Assembly: GCA_965250285.1 (NCBI GenBank)
Contig: OZ252299.1
Coordinates: 1,408,001-1,472,000 of the forward strand
Origin: Myxococcota bacterium
Lineage (GTDB): Bacteria; Myxococcota_A; UBA9160; UBA4427
DNA length: 64,000 bases
Direction of reading: 5' to 3'
This document shows positions 25,638-45,116 of this stretch, in pieces. Position numbers and translations under genes: made by a program. The notes under the pieces are model-generated. The model made no database searches. It worked only from the letters and a program-made list of their open reading frames with translations, and had not been told where the DNA came from. Numbering within the stretch: the stretch's first letter is position 1; each line of letters starts with the position of its first letter.

Positions 25638-27134
25638 TCACTGTGCGGCAGTCGAGTCTTCGTAGTACCGCTCAGCGGCCGGGTGCAGCGGGACGGCGAG
25701 GCCGAGCCGCATCGTCTCGGGCGAGATGAAGCCGGCGCGAAAGTAGCTATCCGACAGCGCGCTGGCCTGATCGACCATCATCTCGAGCAGGCGCGTCACG
25801 GCCGCATCGGAGACCTCTTCGGTCGTGACGAGCGAGGCGGCGAGGCCGAGCGTCATGAAGGGCGCTGCCTGGTTCGGGTAGGTCCGGGCATCGACCTCGA
25901 GCACGTAGTAGGCGAAGCGTTCCTCTGCGAGTCGGTGGACGACGGCCGGGTCGAGCGACACGAATCGCAGATCGGCGCGCCGGGCCGCGAGCGCCTGGAG
26001 AGCCGCCGACGGGACTGCGCTCGTCAGGAAGAGAGCGTCGATGCGTCCCGCCTCGAGCGCACTGATCCCGTTCAGCCCGCCGACATCGACGATCTTGGGG
26101 GGCGGATCGATCGTCGCCCCCGCTGCGATCGAGAGCGCGACGACGTTGAAGCGGGTGCCCGAGCCCCGGGCGCCGACGCCGATCTTGCGACCCGAGAGAT
26201 CGGCGAGACGCTCGATCCCGCTCGATTCGAACGTGATCAGGTGCACCGCCTCGGGCCACAGGCTTGCGACCGAGCGCAGCTCCTGGTTGGGCAGGATCCC
26301 GTTCTCGGTCAGGCCGAGATACAGCGTCTCGGCGACGTCGCTCTGCACCAGCGCGAAGTCGAGCAGCTCGCCCCGCAGCAGCGCGCCGTTCTCGAGGCTG
26401 CCCTCGCTCTCATAGCTGTGCAGGGCGAAACCCGAGCGATGCGCGAAGTCACTGAGCGCCAGGCCGAACCGGTGGTACGTGCCGGGGCTCGGGCCCGAGC
26501 CGAGCGTCCGCTTGTCGGCGAGATGCGCGAGCTTCAAGTCGATGTGGGCGACCGCCGTCCCCAGCTCGTCGAGAATGATGCCGTCGCGTTCGGCCGGGTC
26601 GCGACCGGCCGCATCGTCGAGCGCGCTGCGGATCTGCGCGAGCAGGCGGCGCGGGCCGGAGCCCAGCGTGTCCTGGGTGCGCCGCTCGGGCGGAGGTGCG
26701 GGCACCGTCGCCGCGTCGGCGGGGCGCCACGCGTCATTCGAGGCCACGTACGACAGGCGGCCATGCACCGACAGCGTGTCGCCGGCGGCATTGCCGCCCG
26801 GCTGGATGCCCGAGATCCCGCCATCGGTCGCGCCGACGACGAACGCGAGTGTGCCGACGTTCAGACCCTTCCACGACGTGAGCGAGTAGTCGCGCTGCAG
26901 CTCGAGCCGCGCGTCGTAGTACACATGCAGGCCTCCGGGCTGATCGCCCTGGGCCGGGAACGTCGCCGAGCCCATGCGCCGGAAGGTCTTGACGTCGAAG
27001 AGGCCGGGCTCGAACGCGACGTCGAGCTCGTTCTGGAGATCGGCCCAGAGCGTGTCGGTGTCCGGGCCCCGCTGGCAGCCCATGGTGGCGGCCATGCACA
27101 GGCAGATCACGATCAGCCACGCGGTGTGTCTCAC
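25638..27134 (-). CDS. TAXI-family solute-binding lipoprotein with long N-terminal extension
   Basis: GSG...GTYH.FG, SEGSLENG, VQSD, GARGSGT, VPLHPAAERYY; lipobox TMGC. Confidence 0.9.
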   Translation of the reverse strand: MRHTAWLIVICLCMAATMGCQRGPDTDTLWADLQNELDVAFEPGLFDVKTFRRMGSATFPAQGDQPGGLHVYYDARLELQRDYSLTSWKGLNVGTLAFVVGATDGGISGIQPGGNAAGDTLSVHGRLSYVASNDAWRPADAATVPAPPPERRTQDTLGSGPRRLLAQIRSALDDAAGRDPAERDGIILDELGTAVAHIDLKLAHLADKRTLGSGPSPGTYHRFGLALSDFAHRSGFALHSYESEGSLENGALLRGELLDFALVQSDVAETLYLGLTENGILPNQELRSVASLWPEAVHLITFESSGIERLADLSGRKIGVGARGSGTRFNVVALSIAAGATIDPPPKIVDVGGLNGISALEAGRIDALFLTSAVPSAALQALAARRADLRFVSLDPAVVHRLAEERFAYYVLEVDARTYPNQAAPFMTLGLAASLVTTEEVSDAAVTRLLEMMVDQASALSDSYFRAGFISPETMRLGLAVPLHPAAERYYEDSTAAQ

Positions 27135-28369
27135 AGCCCGAACACCGGCAGGGCGAGGAACCCCTGGATCACGAGCGCGTTGGCGAAGTCGATGAAGAAG
27201 GCGCCCATCAGGGGCACGACCAGGAACGCCTGGGGCGAGGGGCCGTGTCGCTGCGTCACGGCCTCGATGTTCGCGATCGCCGTCGGCGTCGCCCCCATGC
27301 CGAAGCCACAGTGTCCGCCGGCGATGACCGCGCCGTCGTACTTCTTGCCCATGAAGCGGAAGGTGACGAACGTGGCGAACGCCATCATGCCGATCGTCTG
27401 CGCCGCGAGCATGACGGCGAGGGGGCCGGCGAGACCGATCAGCTTCCAGAGCTGGATCGACATCAGGGCCATGGCGAGGAAGAGGCCGAGCGACAGAGAG
27501 CCGATCGCGTCGACGGTCTGGCGGTTCAACGCGAGCGCCGGTACGACCGAGCGGAGATTGCGGATCGCGACGCCGATCATCAGGCTCCAGACGAAGCTTG
27601 GCAGCGTGAACCGAGCGCCGGCGAAGGCCTCACCGAGCAGCTGGCCCCCGATCACGCAGACGAGCACCATGAAGAGGGCGCGGAGCAGCGTGGCGCCGGT
27701 CATCGGCGCGTCGAGCAGCGCGCTGCCGAGGTCGGGCGACGCCTGGCCGCCGGCGTCCGATTCGCGTTCGGCCGCGTCGTCGTCGGTCCCGGGGCCATGC
27801 AGCGCGTAGCGCGCGATCAGGCGACCGGCGACGGGCCCGCCGATCAGACCGCCGATCACGAGGCCGAAGGTCGCGCAGGCCATCGCGAGCTCCATGGCGC
27901 CCGCGATGTTCTGCACGTCGCTGAAGCGCTCGGCGTAAGCGGCGCCGGTGCCGTGCCCACCCGAGAGTGTGATCGATGAGCCCAGCAGGCCGACGAGGGG
28001 ATGCAGATCCATCCCCCGAGCCGCCAGCACACCGATGGTGTTCTGAACGACGAGGTAGGCGACGCAGATCGCGCCGAACACCGCGAGTTGCGGCCCCCCA
28101 TCGCGCAGCTGGCGCAGGTCGGCGCCGAGGCCGATCGTCGTGAAGAAGGCGAGCATCAGCGGCCCACGCAGTGCGTCGTCGAAGGCCAGCTCGACGCCCA
28201 TGCCCGCGTGCAGGGCGGTCCCGGCGAGAGCGAGGATGATGCCGCCCACCACGGGGATCGGGATGTCGTTCTCGCGCAAGACGCGCACGCGACGGATGAC
28301 GGCGCTGCCGACGAAGAGCACGGCGATCGCGAGTGCGAGGGTTTGCGTCGCATCGAAGCTGAACGTCAT
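27131..28369 (-). CDS. gltS: Sodium/glutamate symporter
   Basis: IPIPVVGG, FFTTIGL, GGHGTG, ATFGLVIGGLIGGP, GHCGFGMGATPTAIAN. Confidence 0.95.
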   Translation of the reverse strand: MTFSFDATQTLALAIAVLFVGSAVIRRVRVLRENDIPIPVVGGIILALAGTALHAGMGVELAFDDALRGPLMLAFFTTIGLGADLRQLRDGGPQLAVFGAICVAYLVVQNTIGVLAARGMDLHPLVGLLGSSITLSGGHGTGAAYAERFSDVQNIAGAMELAMACATFGLVIGGLIGGPVAGRLIARYALHGPGTDDDAAERESDAGGQASPDLGSALLDAPMTGATLLRALFMVLVCVIGGQLLGEAFAGARFTLPSFVWSLMIGVAIRNLRSVVPALALNRQTVDAIGSLSLGLFLAMALMSIQLWKLIGLAGPLAVMLAAQTIGMMAFATFVTFRFMGKKYDGAVIAGGHCGFGMGATPTAIANIEAVTQRHGPSPQAFLVVPLMGAFFIDFANALVIQGFLALPVFGL

Positions 28370-28557: not shown

Positions 28558-29685
28558 ATGAAAGCTTGGCTGAGCCACTCGATCGTTTCGCGACTGGGGG
28601 TCGGCCTCGCGCTGATGCTCTCGGTCTCGTGTGCGCAGCTCGGCCTTGGTGGGTCGTCCTCGTCCGAGACGCCCCAGGCCGAGGCGGCGCTCGCCCAGTC
28701 GGCCACCCCCGACACGACCCAGGCGACCGAAGTCGAAGACCTGGTCGCTCTGCAGGCCCTCGTCGACGCGGCCCATGCCCGGTTCGAGAGCGACGACGAA
28801 GGCCAGAACGCCGACTACATCCCGATCCTGGCCACGATCCCTTCCGATCTCTTCGCGGTCGTCATCGTGACCCGGGCGGGTACGGTGCTGCAAGCGGGCG
28901 ACGCCGAGTACCGATACTCGATCCAGTCGGTTGCGAAGCCCTTCACCGCCGCGCTCGTCATGCAGCAGCAGGGCGGTCCCGAGGCCGTGATCGAGAAGAT
29001 CGGCGTCGAGCCGACCGGGTTGCCCTTCAACTCCAAGCTCGCGCTCGAGCTCTACGACGCTCGGTCGGTGAACCCGATGGTGAACGCCGGGGCCATCGCT
29101 GCCGTGAGCCTCGTGAAGGCCGACAGCGAAGACGAGCGCTGGAACCTGGTGCTCGACAATCTCCGCGGTTTCGCCGCCGACGCCGAGCTGCCTCTCCTCG
29201 AGGAGGTGTACCAATCCGAGTACGAGACCTCGTGGAGCAACCGCGCCATCGCGAATCTGCTCTACAACTACGGTCGCCTCTACGCCCAGCCCGAAGAGGC
29301 GCTGCGCGTCTACACGAAGCAGAGCTCGGTGGGTGTGAATACGGTCGACCTGGGGTGGATGGGCGCGACGCTCGCCAACGAGGGCGTGAACCCGAAGTCG
29401 GGCCGGCGCATGCTCGATGCGTCGAGCGTGCCCGAGCTGCTGTCGATCATGCTCACGGCCGGTTTCTACGACGAGTCGGGCCTGTGGTCGGCGCAGACGG
29501 GCCTGCCGGCCAAGACGGGGGTCGGCGGCGGCGTGGTGGCCGTCGTGCCGGGCCGGCTGGCGATCGCCGCGTTCTCACCGCGGTTGAACGCGGCGGGCAA
29601 CAGCGTGCGGGCGCAACGCGCGATCCGGTACATCGCCGGCGAGCTCGGCGCCGGGGTCTTCGGGGCCAATGGCGACGAGTCGTGA
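28558..29685 (+). CDS. glsA: Glutaminase A with N-terminal (lipo)protein signal
   Basis: ADYIP.L, SIQSVAKPF, GVEPTGLPFN, NPMVNAGAI, GLPAKTGVGGG, SPRLNAAGNSVR. Confidence 0.93.
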   Translation: MKAWLSHSIVSRLGVGLALMLSVSCAQLGLGGSSSSETPQAEAALAQSATPDTTQATEVEDLVALQALVDAAHARFESDDEGQNADYIPILATIPSDLFAVVIVTRAGTVLQAGDAEYRYSIQSVAKPFTAALVMQQQGGPEAVIEKIGVEPTGLPFNSKLALELYDARSVNPMVNAGAIAAVSLVKADSEDERWNLVLDNLRGFAADAELPLLEEVYQSEYETSWSNRAIANLLYNYGRLYAQPEEALRVYTKQSSVGVNTVDLGWMGATLANEGVNPKSGRRMLDASSVPELLSIMLTAGFYDESGLWSAQTGLPAKTGVGGGVVAVVPGRLAIAAFSPRLNAAGNSVRAQRAIRYIAGELGAGVFGANGDES

Positions 29686-29728
29686 GCAGCGGCGGGTCGT
29701 GCGAGTGGCCTCGGGTTCGGGGGGGACG

Positions 29729-31174
29729 ATGATCAAGTGCGGGACGCGGAGGATCGCCGCTTTACTGCTCGTGGGCGGTCTCATGATTGCCGGGCCGCTC
29801 GACGCCGCGGCTCAGCGCGAGGACGATGTCGTCGATGCGCCCATCGACGCACCCAACGACGCACCCAACGAAGCCGCGAGCGATGGGCCCGCTGCAGTCG
29901 GTTCGGACGAGACCGTCGGCTGTGACGGCGACGACTGCGACGTGCCTTCGCCGCTCGACCAGGCCGAAGCCGAGCTGCGCGAGGAATACGCCGTTCGCCG
30001 CGTGCGGGTCGAGTATCGCAACTCGATGAACGATCGGCAGGGCCCCGCCGCGCGTCCGGCCGACTACGTGCTCGATCCGGCCTTTCGAGGCTTCATCGAG
30101 ATCCCGAGTACCGTGATGCTGATGAAGATCAATCTGCGGCCGCGGGTCGACATGATGTCGAAGTCGGCGGCCACGGGCACGCCGTTCCGCTTCGTGCCCT
30201 CGCAGTTTCGGGTCGAGGGCGACACCGGCTTCTCGGATGCGTGGCGGTTCAATGGCAGCGCCAACGGCAGCCAGGTTCGGATCGATTTTCGGGCGCCGTC
30301 GCTGCCGGGCAACTTCAGACTCTTCTACCAGAACGACTTCTTCGGCGACGACCAGAAGCAGATGCGCTACCGGCTGCAGCACCTCTATGCGCAGTATCGC
30401 GGACTCGTGGGGGGCTTCACGTTCGGCCTCTTCGAAAACCCCGACGCGTGGCCCGATACCGTCGACTACGAAGGCCCCAACTCGGTGATCTTCGCGCGAC
30501 GTGCGCTCGTCCACTACCTGTGGGAGCTGCGTGATGGGCTCGAGCTGACCTTCGGCATCGAAGATCCGAATCTCGCGATCGACACGAGCGGCGACCCGAA
30601 CGCATCCGCACGGGCACGTTCGCCCGATGGCGGCCTCAATCTGCGCTGGACGTACGGCGACCTGGGGCACACCGAGACAGCGGCCATCTTTCGTTCGGTC
30701 GGCGTCGATGGCGACGTCAACCCGAGCCAGGACGAATTCGGGTGGGGCGTGAATGTCTCGGGTGTGCTGCATCCCGTCGAGCGCGCGACGATGCAGTACT
30801 GGTTCGTGTACGGCGACGGCATCGGCAGCATGGGCAACGACACGAGCTTCCTGGGCTCAGACGCCGCCTTCCGGGCGAATGGGCAGCTCGAGACGCTCGA
30901 GTACTGGAGCGCGATGGGTGCGGTCACCTACCACTGGACGAAGCGCTGGCGTTCCACGATCAGCTACGGCTATGTGAACCTCGAGAACACCAGCGGCCAG
31001 GCGCCGAACGCGTTTCACGAGAGTCACTACGCCACGGCCAATGTGATCCGCCGCATCTTTCGCCGTCTGACGGTCGGCGTCGAAGGAATGTACGGTCGCA
31101 AAGAGGTGCGCGACGGACGGTCGGCGAACGTCTTCGGCGTTCAGGCCAGCGTGATGTACGGCATCTTCGACTGA
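29729..31174 (+). CDS. DcaP-family outer-membrane porin
   Basis: Signal peptide; 'F.GFI.IP.T', 'ANGSQVRIDFR', 'YQNDFFG...YRLQHLY', PDTVDYEGPN; aromatic C-terminus. Confidence 0.8.
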   Translation: MIKCGTRRIAALLLVGGLMIAGPLDAAAQREDDVVDAPIDAPNDAPNEAASDGPAAVGSDETVGCDGDDCDVPSPLDQAEAELREEYAVRRVRVEYRNSMNDRQGPAARPADYVLDPAFRGFIEIPSTVMLMKINLRPRVDMMSKSAATGTPFRFVPSQFRVEGDTGFSDAWRFNGSANGSQVRIDFRAPSLPGNFRLFYQNDFFGDDQKQMRYRLQHLYAQYRGLVGGFTFGLFENPDAWPDTVDYEGPNSVIFARRALVHYLWELRDGLELTFGIEDPNLAIDTSGDPNASARARSPDGGLNLRWTYGDLGHTETAAIFRSVGVDGDVNPSQDEFGWGVNVSGVLHPVERATMQYWFVYGDGIGSMGNDTSFLGSDAAFRANGQLETLEYWSAMGAVTYHWTKRWRSTISYGYVNLENTSGQAPNAFHESHYATANVIRRIFRRLTVGVEGMYGRKEVRDGRSANVFGVQASVMYGIFD

Positions 31175-41114: not shown

Positions 41115-42134
41115 TCAGTCGCGGCGTCGCAGCGCCGAGTACCCCATGAAGGCCAAGCTGCCGCCGAGGGCACCGAGCGCGGCCAGCGGGGCGAGCGGCA
41201 CCTTGAATGCGCCGTCGGTCCAGCTCGTCGAGCCGACCAGGTTGCCGCGGATCGCGTCGCCGAAGATCAGGTTGCTGAAGATCTGGTAGTCGCCGATCGC
41301 GGACGAGGCGGGCACGGCAACGCGATTGCCGTCCGAGCTGAAGTGGAAGAGGGGGACGGGCAAGGGATTGATGAAGGCCTGCAGGCCGCTGCCCCCCGTG
41401 CCGCCCCGTTCGGCCGGCGTCCAGGCTTCTTCGAGGTAGCCGAGGACGCGTGTGCAGTAGGGATCCTCGCCCGGCAGACCGCCCTCGAGGAGCTGGTCTT
41501 CCTGGGTCGTGCACGAGCCGCCGTTCAGCGCCGGGTCGCACCAGGCGTCGCAGTACGTGCCCTGACCGGGCTCGACCACGCCCGGAAAGAACTCGCCACC
41601 GTAGGGATCGTTGTTCAGATTCGGGAACTGAACGGCGTAGCCATTCTTGAACACCGTCTCGTCGGGCGTGATGCTGAGTGCGACGACCGGGAGACCCGAG
41701 AGGACGGCCTCGTTGTACGTGTCGGACTGAATCAAGACGCGGCAGCCGGCGATCGGGTCGAACGTGCCGTTGGTGGCGGCATTCGACGTCGTCGCGCACG
41801 AGAACTCCTGGCTGAGCAGGCTGTGCGTGATCGAGACCTTGAGGACGGGCAGGTCGGTGCCGAAGTTGCCGCCGGGATCGGGATCGATCACGAGTTCGGA
41901 GTCGGGCCCCTCCCACGGCGACGTGCCGATCTCGCAGCCGGTCTTCGGGTCCTGGTCTCCTACCGGCGTGGGCGGCGTGACCGGGTAGAACACGGAGCAG
42001 TTGTTGAAGACGGCGCTCGGCGACGTGATCACCAGGATCGACCCGCCGTTGTTGTAGGTGCGATCGGCTGCCAGCGTCGGTCCCGCCGCGAGGCTGGCGG
42101 CGATCAAGAGCAGCAGTGAGAGTCGAAGCTTCAT
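41115..42134 (-). CDS. Secreted Cys-rich surface protein with VP-TM-RRR sorting tail, paralogue 1
   Basis: Signal peptide (TLA|AD); 8 Cys; C-terminus KVPLAPLAALGALGGSLAFMGYSALRRRD; AGGAG RBS. Confidence 0.9.
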   Translation of the reverse strand: MKLRLSLLLLIAASLAAGPTLAADRTYNNGGSILVITSPSAVFNNCSVFYPVTPPTPVGDQDPKTGCEIGTSPWEGPDSELVIDPDPGGNFGTDLPVLKVSITHSLLSQEFSCATTSNAATNGTFDPIAGCRVLIQSDTYNEAVLSGLPVVALSITPDETVFKNGYAVQFPNLNNDPYGGEFFPGVVEPGQGTYCDAWCDPALNGGSCTTQEDQLLEGGLPGEDPYCTRVLGYLEEAWTPAERGGTGGSGLQAFINPLPVPLFHFSSDGNRVAVPASSAIGDYQIFSNLIFGDAIRGNLVGSTSWTDGAFKVPLAPLAALGALGGSLAFMGYSALRRRD

Positions 42135-42262
42135 CGAGAGGGTCTCCTGTCTCGAGATTCGGTTGCTTGGTCTTCCCCGTTTCGCTCGTCGTGACAGCGC
42201 TTTGCGACACGGCCCGGGCGCGCTGAACCGGCGCGTCCGAACGCTGAACAGCTCACGTGAAG

Positions 42263-42278
42263 AGCAAGCGCCGTGCCA
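42263..42278 (-). promoter_or_regulatory. Sigma-54 (-24/-12) promoter of paralogue 1
   Basis: TGGCAC-GGCGC-TTGCT on - strand. Confidence 0.88.
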
Positions 42279-42454
42279 CGCGTGCGAGGTGAAGCGCACC
42301 GATTTAACGAGGCGGGGCGGGGACTTGGGGGCACCCAGGCGTTGGGCGATGTTTCAATCGCGAGGCATTTTGTCACAGCGGATGTGCGGGAGACCTCCCG
42401 CAGCAGCCCGCTGGCGGCGCCAAACACACGAATTTTCAAGAGTTTCTCAGACTC

Positions 42455-42486
42455 GGGGCAATCTGCTCCATGGGGCAGGATGCTCC
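42455..42486. promoter_or_regulatory. Two tandem palindromic boxes GGGGCA-N3-TGCTCC (candidate enhancer)
   Basis: ggggcaatctgctcc at 42455 and ggggcaggatgctcc at 42472; related boxes upstream of paralogues 2 and 3. Confidence 0.6.
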
Positions 42487-42596
42487 GCGGTGTCGGTGCC
42501 CCACCCGGATCGCCGCGGCCACCTCGAGTGGGCTGTTGGCGCGGCCCTGAGTCGATCGGTTCGAAGCGTGCTCAGGCGCGAGCGTCGCCCGGGCCC

Positions 42597-42634
42597 AAAG
42601 AGAAAGGGCCGCCCAGCGCATGCTGGACGGCCCT
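42597..42634 (-). terminator. Rho-independent terminator of paralogue 2
   Basis: agggccgtccagc-atgc-gctgggcggccct + ttctcttt. Confidence 0.8.
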
Positions 42635-42661
42635 GTCTTGGAGCTTGTTGCGTCTCTGGAT

Positions 42662-43681
42662 CTACTCGCGGCGTCGCAGCACCGAGAAGCCCATGAACGC
42701 GAGGCTGCCGCCGAGGGCACCGAAGGCCGCGAGCGGGGCCAGCGGCACCTTGAAGGCGCCGTCGGTCCAGACCGTGGTCCCGATCAGGTTGCCGCGGATG
42801 GCGTCGCCGAAGATCAGGTTGCTGAAGATCTGGTAGTCGCCAATGGCGCTCGAAGCCGGCACCGCGATGCGGTTGCCGTCCGAGCTGAAGTGCCAGACCG
42901 GGACAGGCAGCGGGTTGATGAAGGCCTGAAGGCCATCACCACCGGTGCCGCCCCGCTCAGCCGGGGTCCACGCCTCTTCGAGGTAGCCGAGGACGCGCGT
43001 GCAGTAGGGCAGCTCGCCGGGCAGGCCACCTTCGAGCAGCTGGTCTTCCTGGGCCGTGCACGAGCCACCGTTGGCGGCCGGGTCGCACCAGGCGTCGCAG
43101 AACGTGCCCTGGCCGGGCTCGATGACGCCGGGGAAGAACTCACCGCCGTAGGGGTCGTTGTTCAGGTTCGGGAACTGAACCGCGTAGCCGTTCTTGAACA
43201 CCGAGCTGTCGGGCGTGATGCTGGTCGCGGCGACCGGCAGGCCGGTGAGCACGGCGTCGTTGAAGGTGTCGGCCTCGATGAACACGCGGCAGCCGGGGAC
43301 CGGATCGAAGGTGCCGTTGGTGGCCGCATTCGAGGTCGTGGCGCAGGAGAACTCCTGCGTCAGGTTGCTGTTCGTGACCGAGGTCGTGATGATCGGCAGA
43401 TCGGTGCCGAAGTTGCCGCCCGGATCGGGGTCGACGACGAGCTGCGAGCCCGAGCCTTCCCAGGGCGAGATGCCGATTTCACAGCCGGTCTTCGGATCCT
43501 GCTCGCCGACCGGGGTGGGCGGCGTGACGGGGTAGAAGACCGAGCAGTTGCCGAACTGGGCGCTCGGCGAAGTGATGACCAGAACCTGGCCGCCGTTGGT
43601 GTAGTCACGATTCGCGGCGAAGGCCGGCATCGCGATCAGGCTGCTCAGGGCGACGAGCAGCAGCGCATTACGAAACTTCAT
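42662..43681 (-). CDS. Secreted Cys-rich surface protein with VP-TM-RRR sorting tail, paralogue 2
   Basis: Signal peptide (AFA|AN); near-identical to paralogues 1 and 3. Confidence 0.9.
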   Translation of the reverse strand: MKFRNALLLVALSSLIAMPAFAANRDYTNGGQVLVITSPSAQFGNCSVFYPVTPPTPVGEQDPKTGCEIGISPWEGSGSQLVVDPDPGGNFGTDLPIITTSVTNSNLTQEFSCATTSNAATNGTFDPVPGCRVFIEADTFNDAVLTGLPVAATSITPDSSVFKNGYAVQFPNLNNDPYGGEFFPGVIEPGQGTFCDAWCDPAANGGSCTAQEDQLLEGGLPGELPYCTRVLGYLEEAWTPAERGGTGGDGLQAFINPLPVPVWHFSSDGNRIAVPASSAIGDYQIFSNLIFGDAIRGNLIGTTVWTDGAFKVPLAPLAAFGALGGSLAFMGFSVLRRRE

Positions 43682-43790
43682 TGAGTGTTTCTTCTCCATC
43701 GGTTTCCATCATCGGGCAACGCCCGCTCTGCCGAGCCGACGCGTGCAACGCACTCGCAGGGTCGCGAGGTGTCGCGATGGCCTCGCTAGG

Positions 43791-43806
43791 AGCAAGACGC
43801 GTGCCA
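43791..43806 (-). promoter_or_regulatory. Sigma-54 promoter of paralogue 2
   Basis: TGGCAC-GCGTC-TTGCT on - strand. Confidence 0.88.
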
Positions 43807-44031
43807 CATGTTGCGATTGTGTCGCGCCCTGAAAACGCAATGAAATCGGCTATTTGGGTCCTTCTGTGACAAGTTCGGGGCGATGCCTCTACGGAGCATA
43901 ATGCCCCGGATTCACCGTTCGCATCCCATCTGCTCGTACGCAGGCGGGGAGAAAATCCAGCAAAAACAAGCACTTGGCGATTTCGGGTGAATTCGCCCCA
44001 GTGCGGCATTCTGCGCCGTGCCCGGTGGCCC

Positions 44032-44069
44032 AAACAGAGAGGGCCGCCCAGCGCATGCTGGACGGCCCT
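44032..44069 (-). terminator. Rho-independent terminator of paralogue 3
   Basis: Hairpin identical to 42605-42634, followed by ctctgttt. Confidence 0.75.
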
Positions 44070-44096
44070 GTCTTGGAGCTTGTTGCGTCTCTGGAT

Positions 44097-45116
44097 CTAC
44101 TCGCGGCGTCGCAGCACCGAGTAGCCCATGAACGCGAGGCTGCCGCCAAGGGCACCGAAGGCCGCGAGCGGGGCCAGCGGCACCTTGAAGGCGCCGTCGG
44201 TCCAGACCGTGGTCCCGGTCAGGTTGCCGCGGATGGCGTCGCCGAAGATCAGGTTGCTGAAGATCTGGTAGTCGCCGATGGCAGTCGAAGCCGGCACCGC
44301 GATGCGGTTGCCGTCCGAGCTGAAGTGCCAGACCGGGACGGGCAGCGGGTTGATGAAGGCCTGGAGGCCATCACCACCGGTGCCGCCGCGCTCGGCCGGC
44401 TGAAACTGCTCCTCGAGGTAGCCGAGGACGCGCGTGCAGTAGGGCAGCTCGCCGGGGAGGCCACCTTCGAGCAGCTGGTCTTCCTGGGCCGTGCACGAGC
44501 CACCGTTGGCCGCCGGGTCGCACCAGGCATCACAGAAGACGCCCTGACCCTGCTCGACGACGCCCGGGAAGAACTCACCGCCGTAGGGGTCGTTGTTCAG
44601 GTTCGGGAACTGAACGGCGTAGCCATCCTTGAAGACCGTGTCGTCGGGCGTGATGCTGGTCGCGGCGACCGGCAGGCCCGTGAGGACGGCGTCATTGAAG
44701 GTATCGGCCTCGATGAACACGCGGCAGCCGGGGACCGGATCGAAGGTGCCGTTGGTGGCCGCATTCGAGGTCGTGGCGCAGGAGAACTCCTGCGTCAGAT
44801 TGCTCTGCGTGACCGAGGTCGTGATGATCGGCAGATCGGTGCCGAAGCTGCCGCCCGGATCGGGGTCGACGACGAGCTGTGAGCCCGAGCCTTCCCAGGG
44901 CGAGATGCCGACTTCGCAGCCGCTCTTCGGATCCTGCGCACCGACCGGGGTGGGCGGCGTGACCGGGTAGAAGACCGAGCAGTTGTTGAACTGGGCACTC
45001 GGCGACGTGATGATGAGGATCTGGCCCCCATTGGTGTAGTTGCGATTCGCGGCAAAGGCCGGCATCGCGATCAGGCTGCTCATGACCAGGAGCAGCAGCG
45101 TGAATCGAAGCTTCAT
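44097..45116 (-). CDS. Secreted Cys-rich surface protein with VP-TM-RRR sorting tail, paralogue 3
   Basis: AAGGA RBS; signal peptide; near-identical to paralogues 1 and 2. Confidence 0.9.
   Translation of the reverse strand: MKLRFTLLLLVMSSLIAMPAFAANRNYTNGGQILIITSPSAQFNNCSVFYPVTPPTPVGAQDPKSGCEVGISPWEGSGSQLVVDPDPGGSFGTDLPIITTSVTQSNLTQEFSCATTSNAATNGTFDPVPGCRVFIEADTFNDAVLTGLPVAATSITPDDTVFKDGYAVQFPNLNNDPYGGEFFPGVVEQGQGVFCDAWCDPAANGGSCTAQEDQLLEGGLPGELPYCTRVLGYLEEQFQPAERGGTGGDGLQAFINPLPVPVWHFSSDGNRIAVPASTAIGDYQIFSNLIFGDAIRGNLTGTTVWTDGAFKVPLAPLAAFGALGGSLAFMGYSVLRRRE

Follow-up and report, generated by a model that had tools for sequence, protein, structure and literature searches.

An elongated TAXI protein encoded behind gltS in a Myxococcota genome: a further example of the TAXI-GltS class

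Which transporter does a TAXI solute-binding protein serve when its gene overlaps gltS and no TRAP permease gene lies near it? The question is raised by two minus-strand genes in a stretch of 64,000 nucleotides of Myxococcota bacterium DNA (contig OZ252299.1 of assembly GCA_965250285.1, positions 1,408,001 to 1,472,000), here called the window. The gltS gene (27131..28369, minus strand) encodes an intact Na+/glutamate symporter of the ESS family with a length of 412 aa, and the adjoining gene (25638..27134, minus strand) starts with GTG and encodes an elongated TAXI protein of 498 aa, a predicted lipoprotein of the BP0403 type. By all defining features that sequence can test, the pair belongs to the published TAXI-GltS class, described for BP0402/BP0403 of Bordetella pertussis (Jaques et al., Commun Biol 2025;8:1201, PMC12344293). 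The TAXI protein would probably act as a lipid-anchored dimer that binds periplasmic L-glutamate and passes it on to GltS for uptake driven by sodium, a reading that is given a probability of about 0.75.

Both open reading frames were chosen, with the same starts, by a codon-usage filter trained on the genes of the window. GltS matches PF03616 with 418 bits and TIGR00210 with 440.6 bits (cut-off 310.75), is intact and conserved along its entire length, and retains the stretches GGH.T (residues 137-141) and GH.GF..G.TPT (352-363), which are conserved over 21 aligned rows. The gene is single-copy in the genome (one profile match). The TAXI protein matches TIGR02122 with 185.9 bits (cut-off 84.35), and the match covers residues 207-493 only. 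The plus strand reads tcac at 27131-27134, which is GTGA on the minus strand, the TGA stop of gltS overlapping the GTG start of the TAXI gene. This overlap, reported in an earlier note on the same DNA, was confirmed by direct reading; the translational coupling claimed along with it is suggested by the overlap. A scan for promoters and terminators returned nothing above chance.

BP0403 is a 503-aa predicted lipoprotein that consists of an N-terminal domain (NTD, residues 20-139), a helical domain, and a TAXI domain (208-503). It binds L-glutamate with a dissociation constant of 180 nM, from which Y219A loses 167-fold and Q263A 250-fold, and it dimerizes via the helical domain, the L201R variant being a monomer. 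Its gene overlaps gltS, and no TRAP membrane gene is found nearby. In the AlphaFold 3 model of a 2:2 BP0402/BP0403 complex the NTD touches the transport domain of GltS (all PMC12344293). Homology to BP0403 was tested with a near-identical stand-in, the L194 protein, and not with UniProt Q7VSK8 itself; the stand-in is 503 aa long, has the published BP0403 signal peptide and two Trp in the mature NTD, and agrees with BP0403 at 8 of 9 landmark residues from the paper. Its gene overlaps gltS by GTGA as in the window. Residues 6-492 of the window TAXI protein align with it at 32% identity (E 1.8e-61), with 39% identity between the two NTDs (E 2.3e-22) and 31% between the binding domains (E 6e-33), while linker and hairpin alone gave no significant BLAST match. 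Four landmarks are in register at an offset of +1 (window/BP0403: C20/C19, L202/L201, Y220/Y219, Q264/Q263). The novelty that the earlier note attached to a TAXI-GltS transporter does not hold, since the class, including the three-domain lipoprotein, the overlap and the lack of TRAP genes, was published in 2025 (PMC12344293).

The N-terminus of the window TAXI protein has a basic start followed by a hydrophobic stretch and Cys20. The predicted lipoprotein signal peptide (residues 1-19) with Cys20 (27075..27134, minus strand) coincides with a modelled helix at residues 2-18, and Cys20 is found without exception in 28 close homologues and in the 35 rows of a further alignment; of 116 distant rows, 111 have it. 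The protein is therefore predicted to be lipid-anchored. An AlphaFold2 model built from a 28-row alignment (mean predicted local distance difference test score, pLDDT, 81.7; predicted template modelling score 0.64) shows the signal helix, an alpha/beta domain at about 26-138, a low-confidence linker at 141-158, a two-helix hairpin (161-174 and 183-205) and the binding domain at 209-497. The NTD is accordingly placed at residues 20-138 (26721..27077), the helical hairpin at 161-205 (26520..26654), and the TAXI binding domain, by its structure match to VcGluP 8s4j, at 207-498 (25641..26516), all on the minus strand. No Pfam or NCBIfam model matched residues 1-206 at E<=0.1, the NTD included. Folded alone from its single sequence, the NTD yielded a poor model (pLDDT 46.8); whole-model searches with Foldseek and VIA-align returned matches to the binding domain and nothing for the NTD, and ESM Atlas gave two sub-threshold matches (0.76 and 0.75). 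These results speak neither for nor against a PilO-like fold of the NTD, which is one of the traits of the class. The earlier description of a lipoprotein with one extra N-terminal domain of about 190 aa is borne out for the extension and for the signal, lipidation being predicted, and is revised as to the single domain, which the model splits into alpha/beta domain, linker and hairpin. The hairpin is likely to be a dimerisation element: its hydrophobic positions 164, 165, 172, 188, 191, 198 and 200 are kept in 35 of 35 close relatives, and L202 aligns with L201 of BP0403 in a register taken from the family alignment.

The binding domain superimposes on that of VcGluP (8S4J) with a Z score of 33.5 and a root-mean-square deviation of 2.7 A over 293 residues (VIA-align), and shares its fold with T. 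thermophilus TtGluBP as well (Z 32.6). The glutamate site was mapped by reading a phmmer alignment against the site residues listed in PMC11574862, from which the VcGluP data below are also taken. VcGluP Y45, S75, Q93, E125 and G156 correspond to Y220, S246, Q264, E295 and G326 of the window protein, of which Y220 and Q264 are also the counterparts of the BP0403 glutamate-site residues Y219 and Q263. Out of 116 family rows, 108 retain the site Tyr, 106 the Gln and 111 the Glu. M201 of VcGluP is replaced by T371, the match to Thr187 in the T. thermophilus protein with bound glutamate, and S40 by P215; the contacts made by S40, Y200 and H123 are minor or water-mediated.

The pairing was surveyed in 47 GTDB loci, from 44 genomes, that hold a close homologue of the long TAXI protein (close set), and in metagenome loci recovered by a distant profile, sharing 26-33% identity with the window protein and comprising the best 80 of 556 matches, some of them near-identical (distant set). 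A gltS gene lies directly upstream on the same strand in 45 of the 47 close loci, the two misses being contig ends with at most 91 bp upstream, and directly upstream in 75 of the 80 distant loci, where the five misses have at most 205 bp upstream and are likewise contig ends. Thus every locus with sufficient flank (120/120) has gltS directly upstream of the long TAXI gene, and the non-conservation that the earlier note had named as a possible refutation was not observed. With automatically chosen starts, the gap between the two genes is 12 nt or less in 33 of 37 close and 73 of 74 distant relatives that could be scored. True overlaps number only three in each set, but such starts undercount them; in L194, for instance, it is the published N-terminus that implies the GTGA overlap. 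No fused TAXI-type permease was detected by tblastn in the available DNA of the 127 long-TAXI loci. In contrast, of 24 control loci with a TAXI protein of normal size, taken from 401 sampled genomes of a single class, 20 have the permease and none has gltS. The long TAXI protein is patchy in distribution, being found in 3 of the 401 sampled genomes when three candidates were scored per genome. Seen from the gltS side, 11 relatives have a PF03616 match; the long TAXI gene is present in all five with a GltS identity of 63% or more, and the remaining ones (GltS 37-42% identical) have none within the examined flanks. The closest locus is L013, apparently in the same-genus genome, whose GltS is 85% identical. 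A class sample of 300 genomes yielded 14 gltS loci, and only one of them, already known, has the long TAXI gene. Other domain arrangements were also encountered: five proteins of 1,063-2,478 aa (P0124, P0176, P0205, P0232 and P0196) carry three or four TAXI-like binding domains each in tandem, and several proteins of about 610-720 aa carry two.

A TAXI protein might still serve a TRAP permease encoded elsewhere in the genome, with the adjacency to gltS reflecting shared regulation only. The genome of the window (one contig, 95.4% complete) contains three DctM genes, and a completeness of about 95% leaves room for a missing gene. All four DctM-profile matches, the fourth being a false match of the CitMHS type, lie outside the window, in agreement with the earlier statement that the window holds no TRAP membrane gene. 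Each of the three DctM genes, however, is flanked by its own DctP and DctQ genes, and the fused TAXI-type permease model TIGR02123 reaches 66.5 bits at best against a cut-off of 320.65, so that no cognate partner of the kind that would have spoken against the pairing was found. Over 61 relatives, the own genome included, no TIGR02123 match exceeded the cut-off. It was exceeded in 1 of the 44 long-TAXI genomes, and one more has a truncated match (307 bits); the other 42, in assemblies of unstated completeness, are without any strong match. In the single genome with a full permease, a TAXI match of normal size stands directly upstream of the permease gene (L115). The TRAP-partner explanation is largely refuted and is considered very improbable.

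The same genome encodes a second TAXI protein, of normal size (344 aa; L060:6935-7969, minus strand, equal to G000:C1:1295935-1296969), which scores 238 bits against TIGR02122 and has a lipoprotein-like Cys, in a genome without any TAXI permease. Its gene sits between that of an AMP-binding enzyme and a gene for a 403-aa protein without a Pfam match, and a 57% identical counterpart occurs in a genome of the same genus (L218). For this orphan, transport through GltS in trans is conceivable. Two short TAXI-like NMT1_3 proteins of 251 and 258 aa (L064:6598-7353 and L065:5686-6462, both minus strand) fall below the TIGR02122 cut-off and have no recognised transporter gene beside them. Weak NMT1_3-like matches are frequent in the relatives, themselves without TAXI permeases.

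With a conserved pair and no cognate TAXI permease, assistance of GltS by a binding protein, as supposed in the earlier note, is the best explanation. The mechanism is proposed because of the published model of the BP0402/BP0403 complex (PMC12344293) and the homology to it. The lipid-anchored TAXI dimer would sit above the GltS dimer, with the hairpins of the two TAXI chains interlocked over the scaffold of the GltS dimer and each NTD bracing one GltS transport domain. Glutamate would be captured in the periplasm at sub-micromolar concentration, and each binding domain would release it into the outward-open site of GltS, an elevator-type Na+ symporter. Such a hand-over would raise the affinity above that of E. 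coli GltS, for which a Michaelis constant of 13.5-30 uM is cited in PMC12344293. Docking by the extra domain, as supposed in the earlier note, would correspond to the NTD contact with GltS in the AlphaFold 3 model of that paper; the helical part is the one shown to dimerise BP0403.

Several observations weigh against this proposal. In the hairpin, no more than 20 of 35 close relatives have a hydrophobic residue in column 202, and the hydrophobic moments of the helices are not clearly above those of shuffled sequences (139, 665 and 207 of 2000). At secondary positions of the glutamate site, Y200 and H123 of VcGluP are replaced by L370 and W293. Window GltS is 43% identical to the BP0402-like GltS versus 47% to the stand-alone GltS of E. 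coli. The GltS proteins linked to a long TAXI protein fall into two clades with strong support (44 and 60 rows), and stand-alone GltS lies between the two; the tree has 54 rows and omits L209 and near-identical sequences. The data neither establish a single origin of TAXI-linked GltS nor reject it (p-AU 0.415). Finally, the authors of PMC12344293 state that functional coupling needs experimental verification and that the function of BP0402 on its own is uncertain. A later functional test of TAXI-GltS was not found in the open-access literature (subscription papers lay outside the scope), where only a citing paper turned up. As to the tree, the two clades represent either two recruitments of the TAXI protein or one gain with losses. 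The clade of window GltS contains marine and sediment Gammaproteobacteria and records titled Myxococcota, and is separate from the BP0402-like GltS. That TAXI-linked GltS might form one subclade was considered and rejected, the distant TAXI-linked GltS proteins being also about 40-47% identical and the tree showing two clades.

One rival is that GltS works alone as a classical symporter, and that the co-transcribed TAXI lipoprotein is an accessory, a buffer or a regulatory glutamate sensor without hand-over. Window GltS is indeed a full and ordinary family member; most GltS proteins stand alone (a TAXI match was found in 0 of 13 other gammaproteobacterial gltS loci, with flanks of up to about 1.5 kb, two of them short), and PMC12718363 raises a regulatory or accessory role for GluP, a TAXI protein of V. 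cholerae. This rival is nevertheless unlikely in view of the position of the long TAXI gene behind gltS in all informative loci, the spacing that is nearly always 12 nt or less, and the TAXI-GltS gene fusions reported in PMC12344293. Hand-over to GltS might also take place with another ligand in the window clade, a glutamate relative such as glutamine, pyroglutamate or D-glutamate. In favor of this are the low identity to the BP0403-like binding domain (31%), the altered equivalents of Y200 and H123, the weak binding of glutamine and pyroglutamate by VcGluP, and the glutaminase gene that adjoins the pair. Against it, the Tyr and Gln that dominate glutamate affinity in VcGluP and BP0403 are both kept, the Y200 change has only a 3.5-fold effect in VcGluP and the changed residue occurs in 20% of TAXI proteins, T371 has the identity of Thr187 in the glutamate-bound T. 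thermophilus protein, and every characterised GltS carries glutamate (PMC12344293). A ligand other than L-glutamate is regarded as quite unlikely, and glutamate hand-over from the TAXI dimer to GltS is preferred.

On the other side of gltS, and head-to-head with it, lies a gene for glutaminase A with a lipoprotein-like N-terminus (28558-29685, plus strand; NF009020 above its cut-off); the genome has no other glutaminase. It is followed by a gene for a DcaP-like porin (29669-31174, plus strand), a weak match (E 3e-4) below the cut-off. The glutaminase neighbor fits the glutamate theme, and a glutamine-scavenging module can be imagined in which the porin would admit glutamine, the glutaminase would convert it to periplasmic glutamate, and the product would be captured for GltS by the TAXI dimer. 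That TAXI-GltS is the uptake arm of such a module, with its GltS clade acquiring TAXI separately from the Bordetella-type clade, is rather doubtful. A glutaminase gene is found near the pair in only 1 of the 127 loci (1/47 close, 0/80 distant), in L045, where it follows the TAXI gene, and in a genome of the same genus gltS directly follows an ABC-transporter gene, the glutaminase-porin cassette missing at that place. The porin is near the pair in 0 of 47 close and 0 of 80 distant loci, and a conserved glutaminase-porin-gltS-TAXI cluster as a general feature was rejected on these counts. A short contig of the relative G048 (L117) likewise has glutaminase and porin genes side by side, not linked to gltS. 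A glutaminase-porin-gltS module was not found reported in the open-access literature. Elsewhere in the window (41115-45116, minus strand), three tandem paralogous open reading frames of 330-339 aa with similar signal-peptide-bearing N-termini were observed; they are not annotated.

The TAXI-GltS class is young, and the feeding of GltS by a binding protein, the claim at its centre, is so far a proposal in the papers found. The window locus is a further example of the class and brings no new concept. The survey strengthens the genomic case, with none of the informative long-TAXI loci placed beside a TRAP permease gene as against most of the controls, and extends the class to an environmental clade that is about 30% identical to BP0403, and thereby offers material from non-pathogens for reconstitution and cryo-EM; the genome list in Fig. 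6 of PMC12344293 could overlap the clades surveyed here.

Among known systems, VcGluP (PDB 8S4J/9IBO; PMC11574862) and TtGluBP (1US4/8U79) share with the window protein the fold of the binding domain and the main glutamate-site residues, but are 300-350 aa in length and have neither NTD nor hairpin. TAXI-TRAP systems differ in having as partner a fused permease of the DctQM type with 4 and 12 transmembrane helices (4TM/12TM; TIGR02123), which is absent from the window genome. The stand-alone GltS of E. coli (TCDB 2.A.27) resembles window GltS, a full-length member 47% identical to it, whereas its gene has xanP and recG as neighbors and no gene for a binding protein, and window gltS is joined to the TAXI gene. 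From BP0402/BP0403 the window pair, known from sequence alone, differs in its neighbors (glutaminase and DcaP-like porin), in its identity to the L194 locus (TAXI 32%, GltS 43%), and in the placement of its GltS in a different well-supported clade. The two systems agree in the absence of a TRAP membrane gene nearby, in a gltS gene upstream that overlaps the TAXI start, and in a predicted lipoprotein of about 500 aa with three parts at near-equal coordinates.

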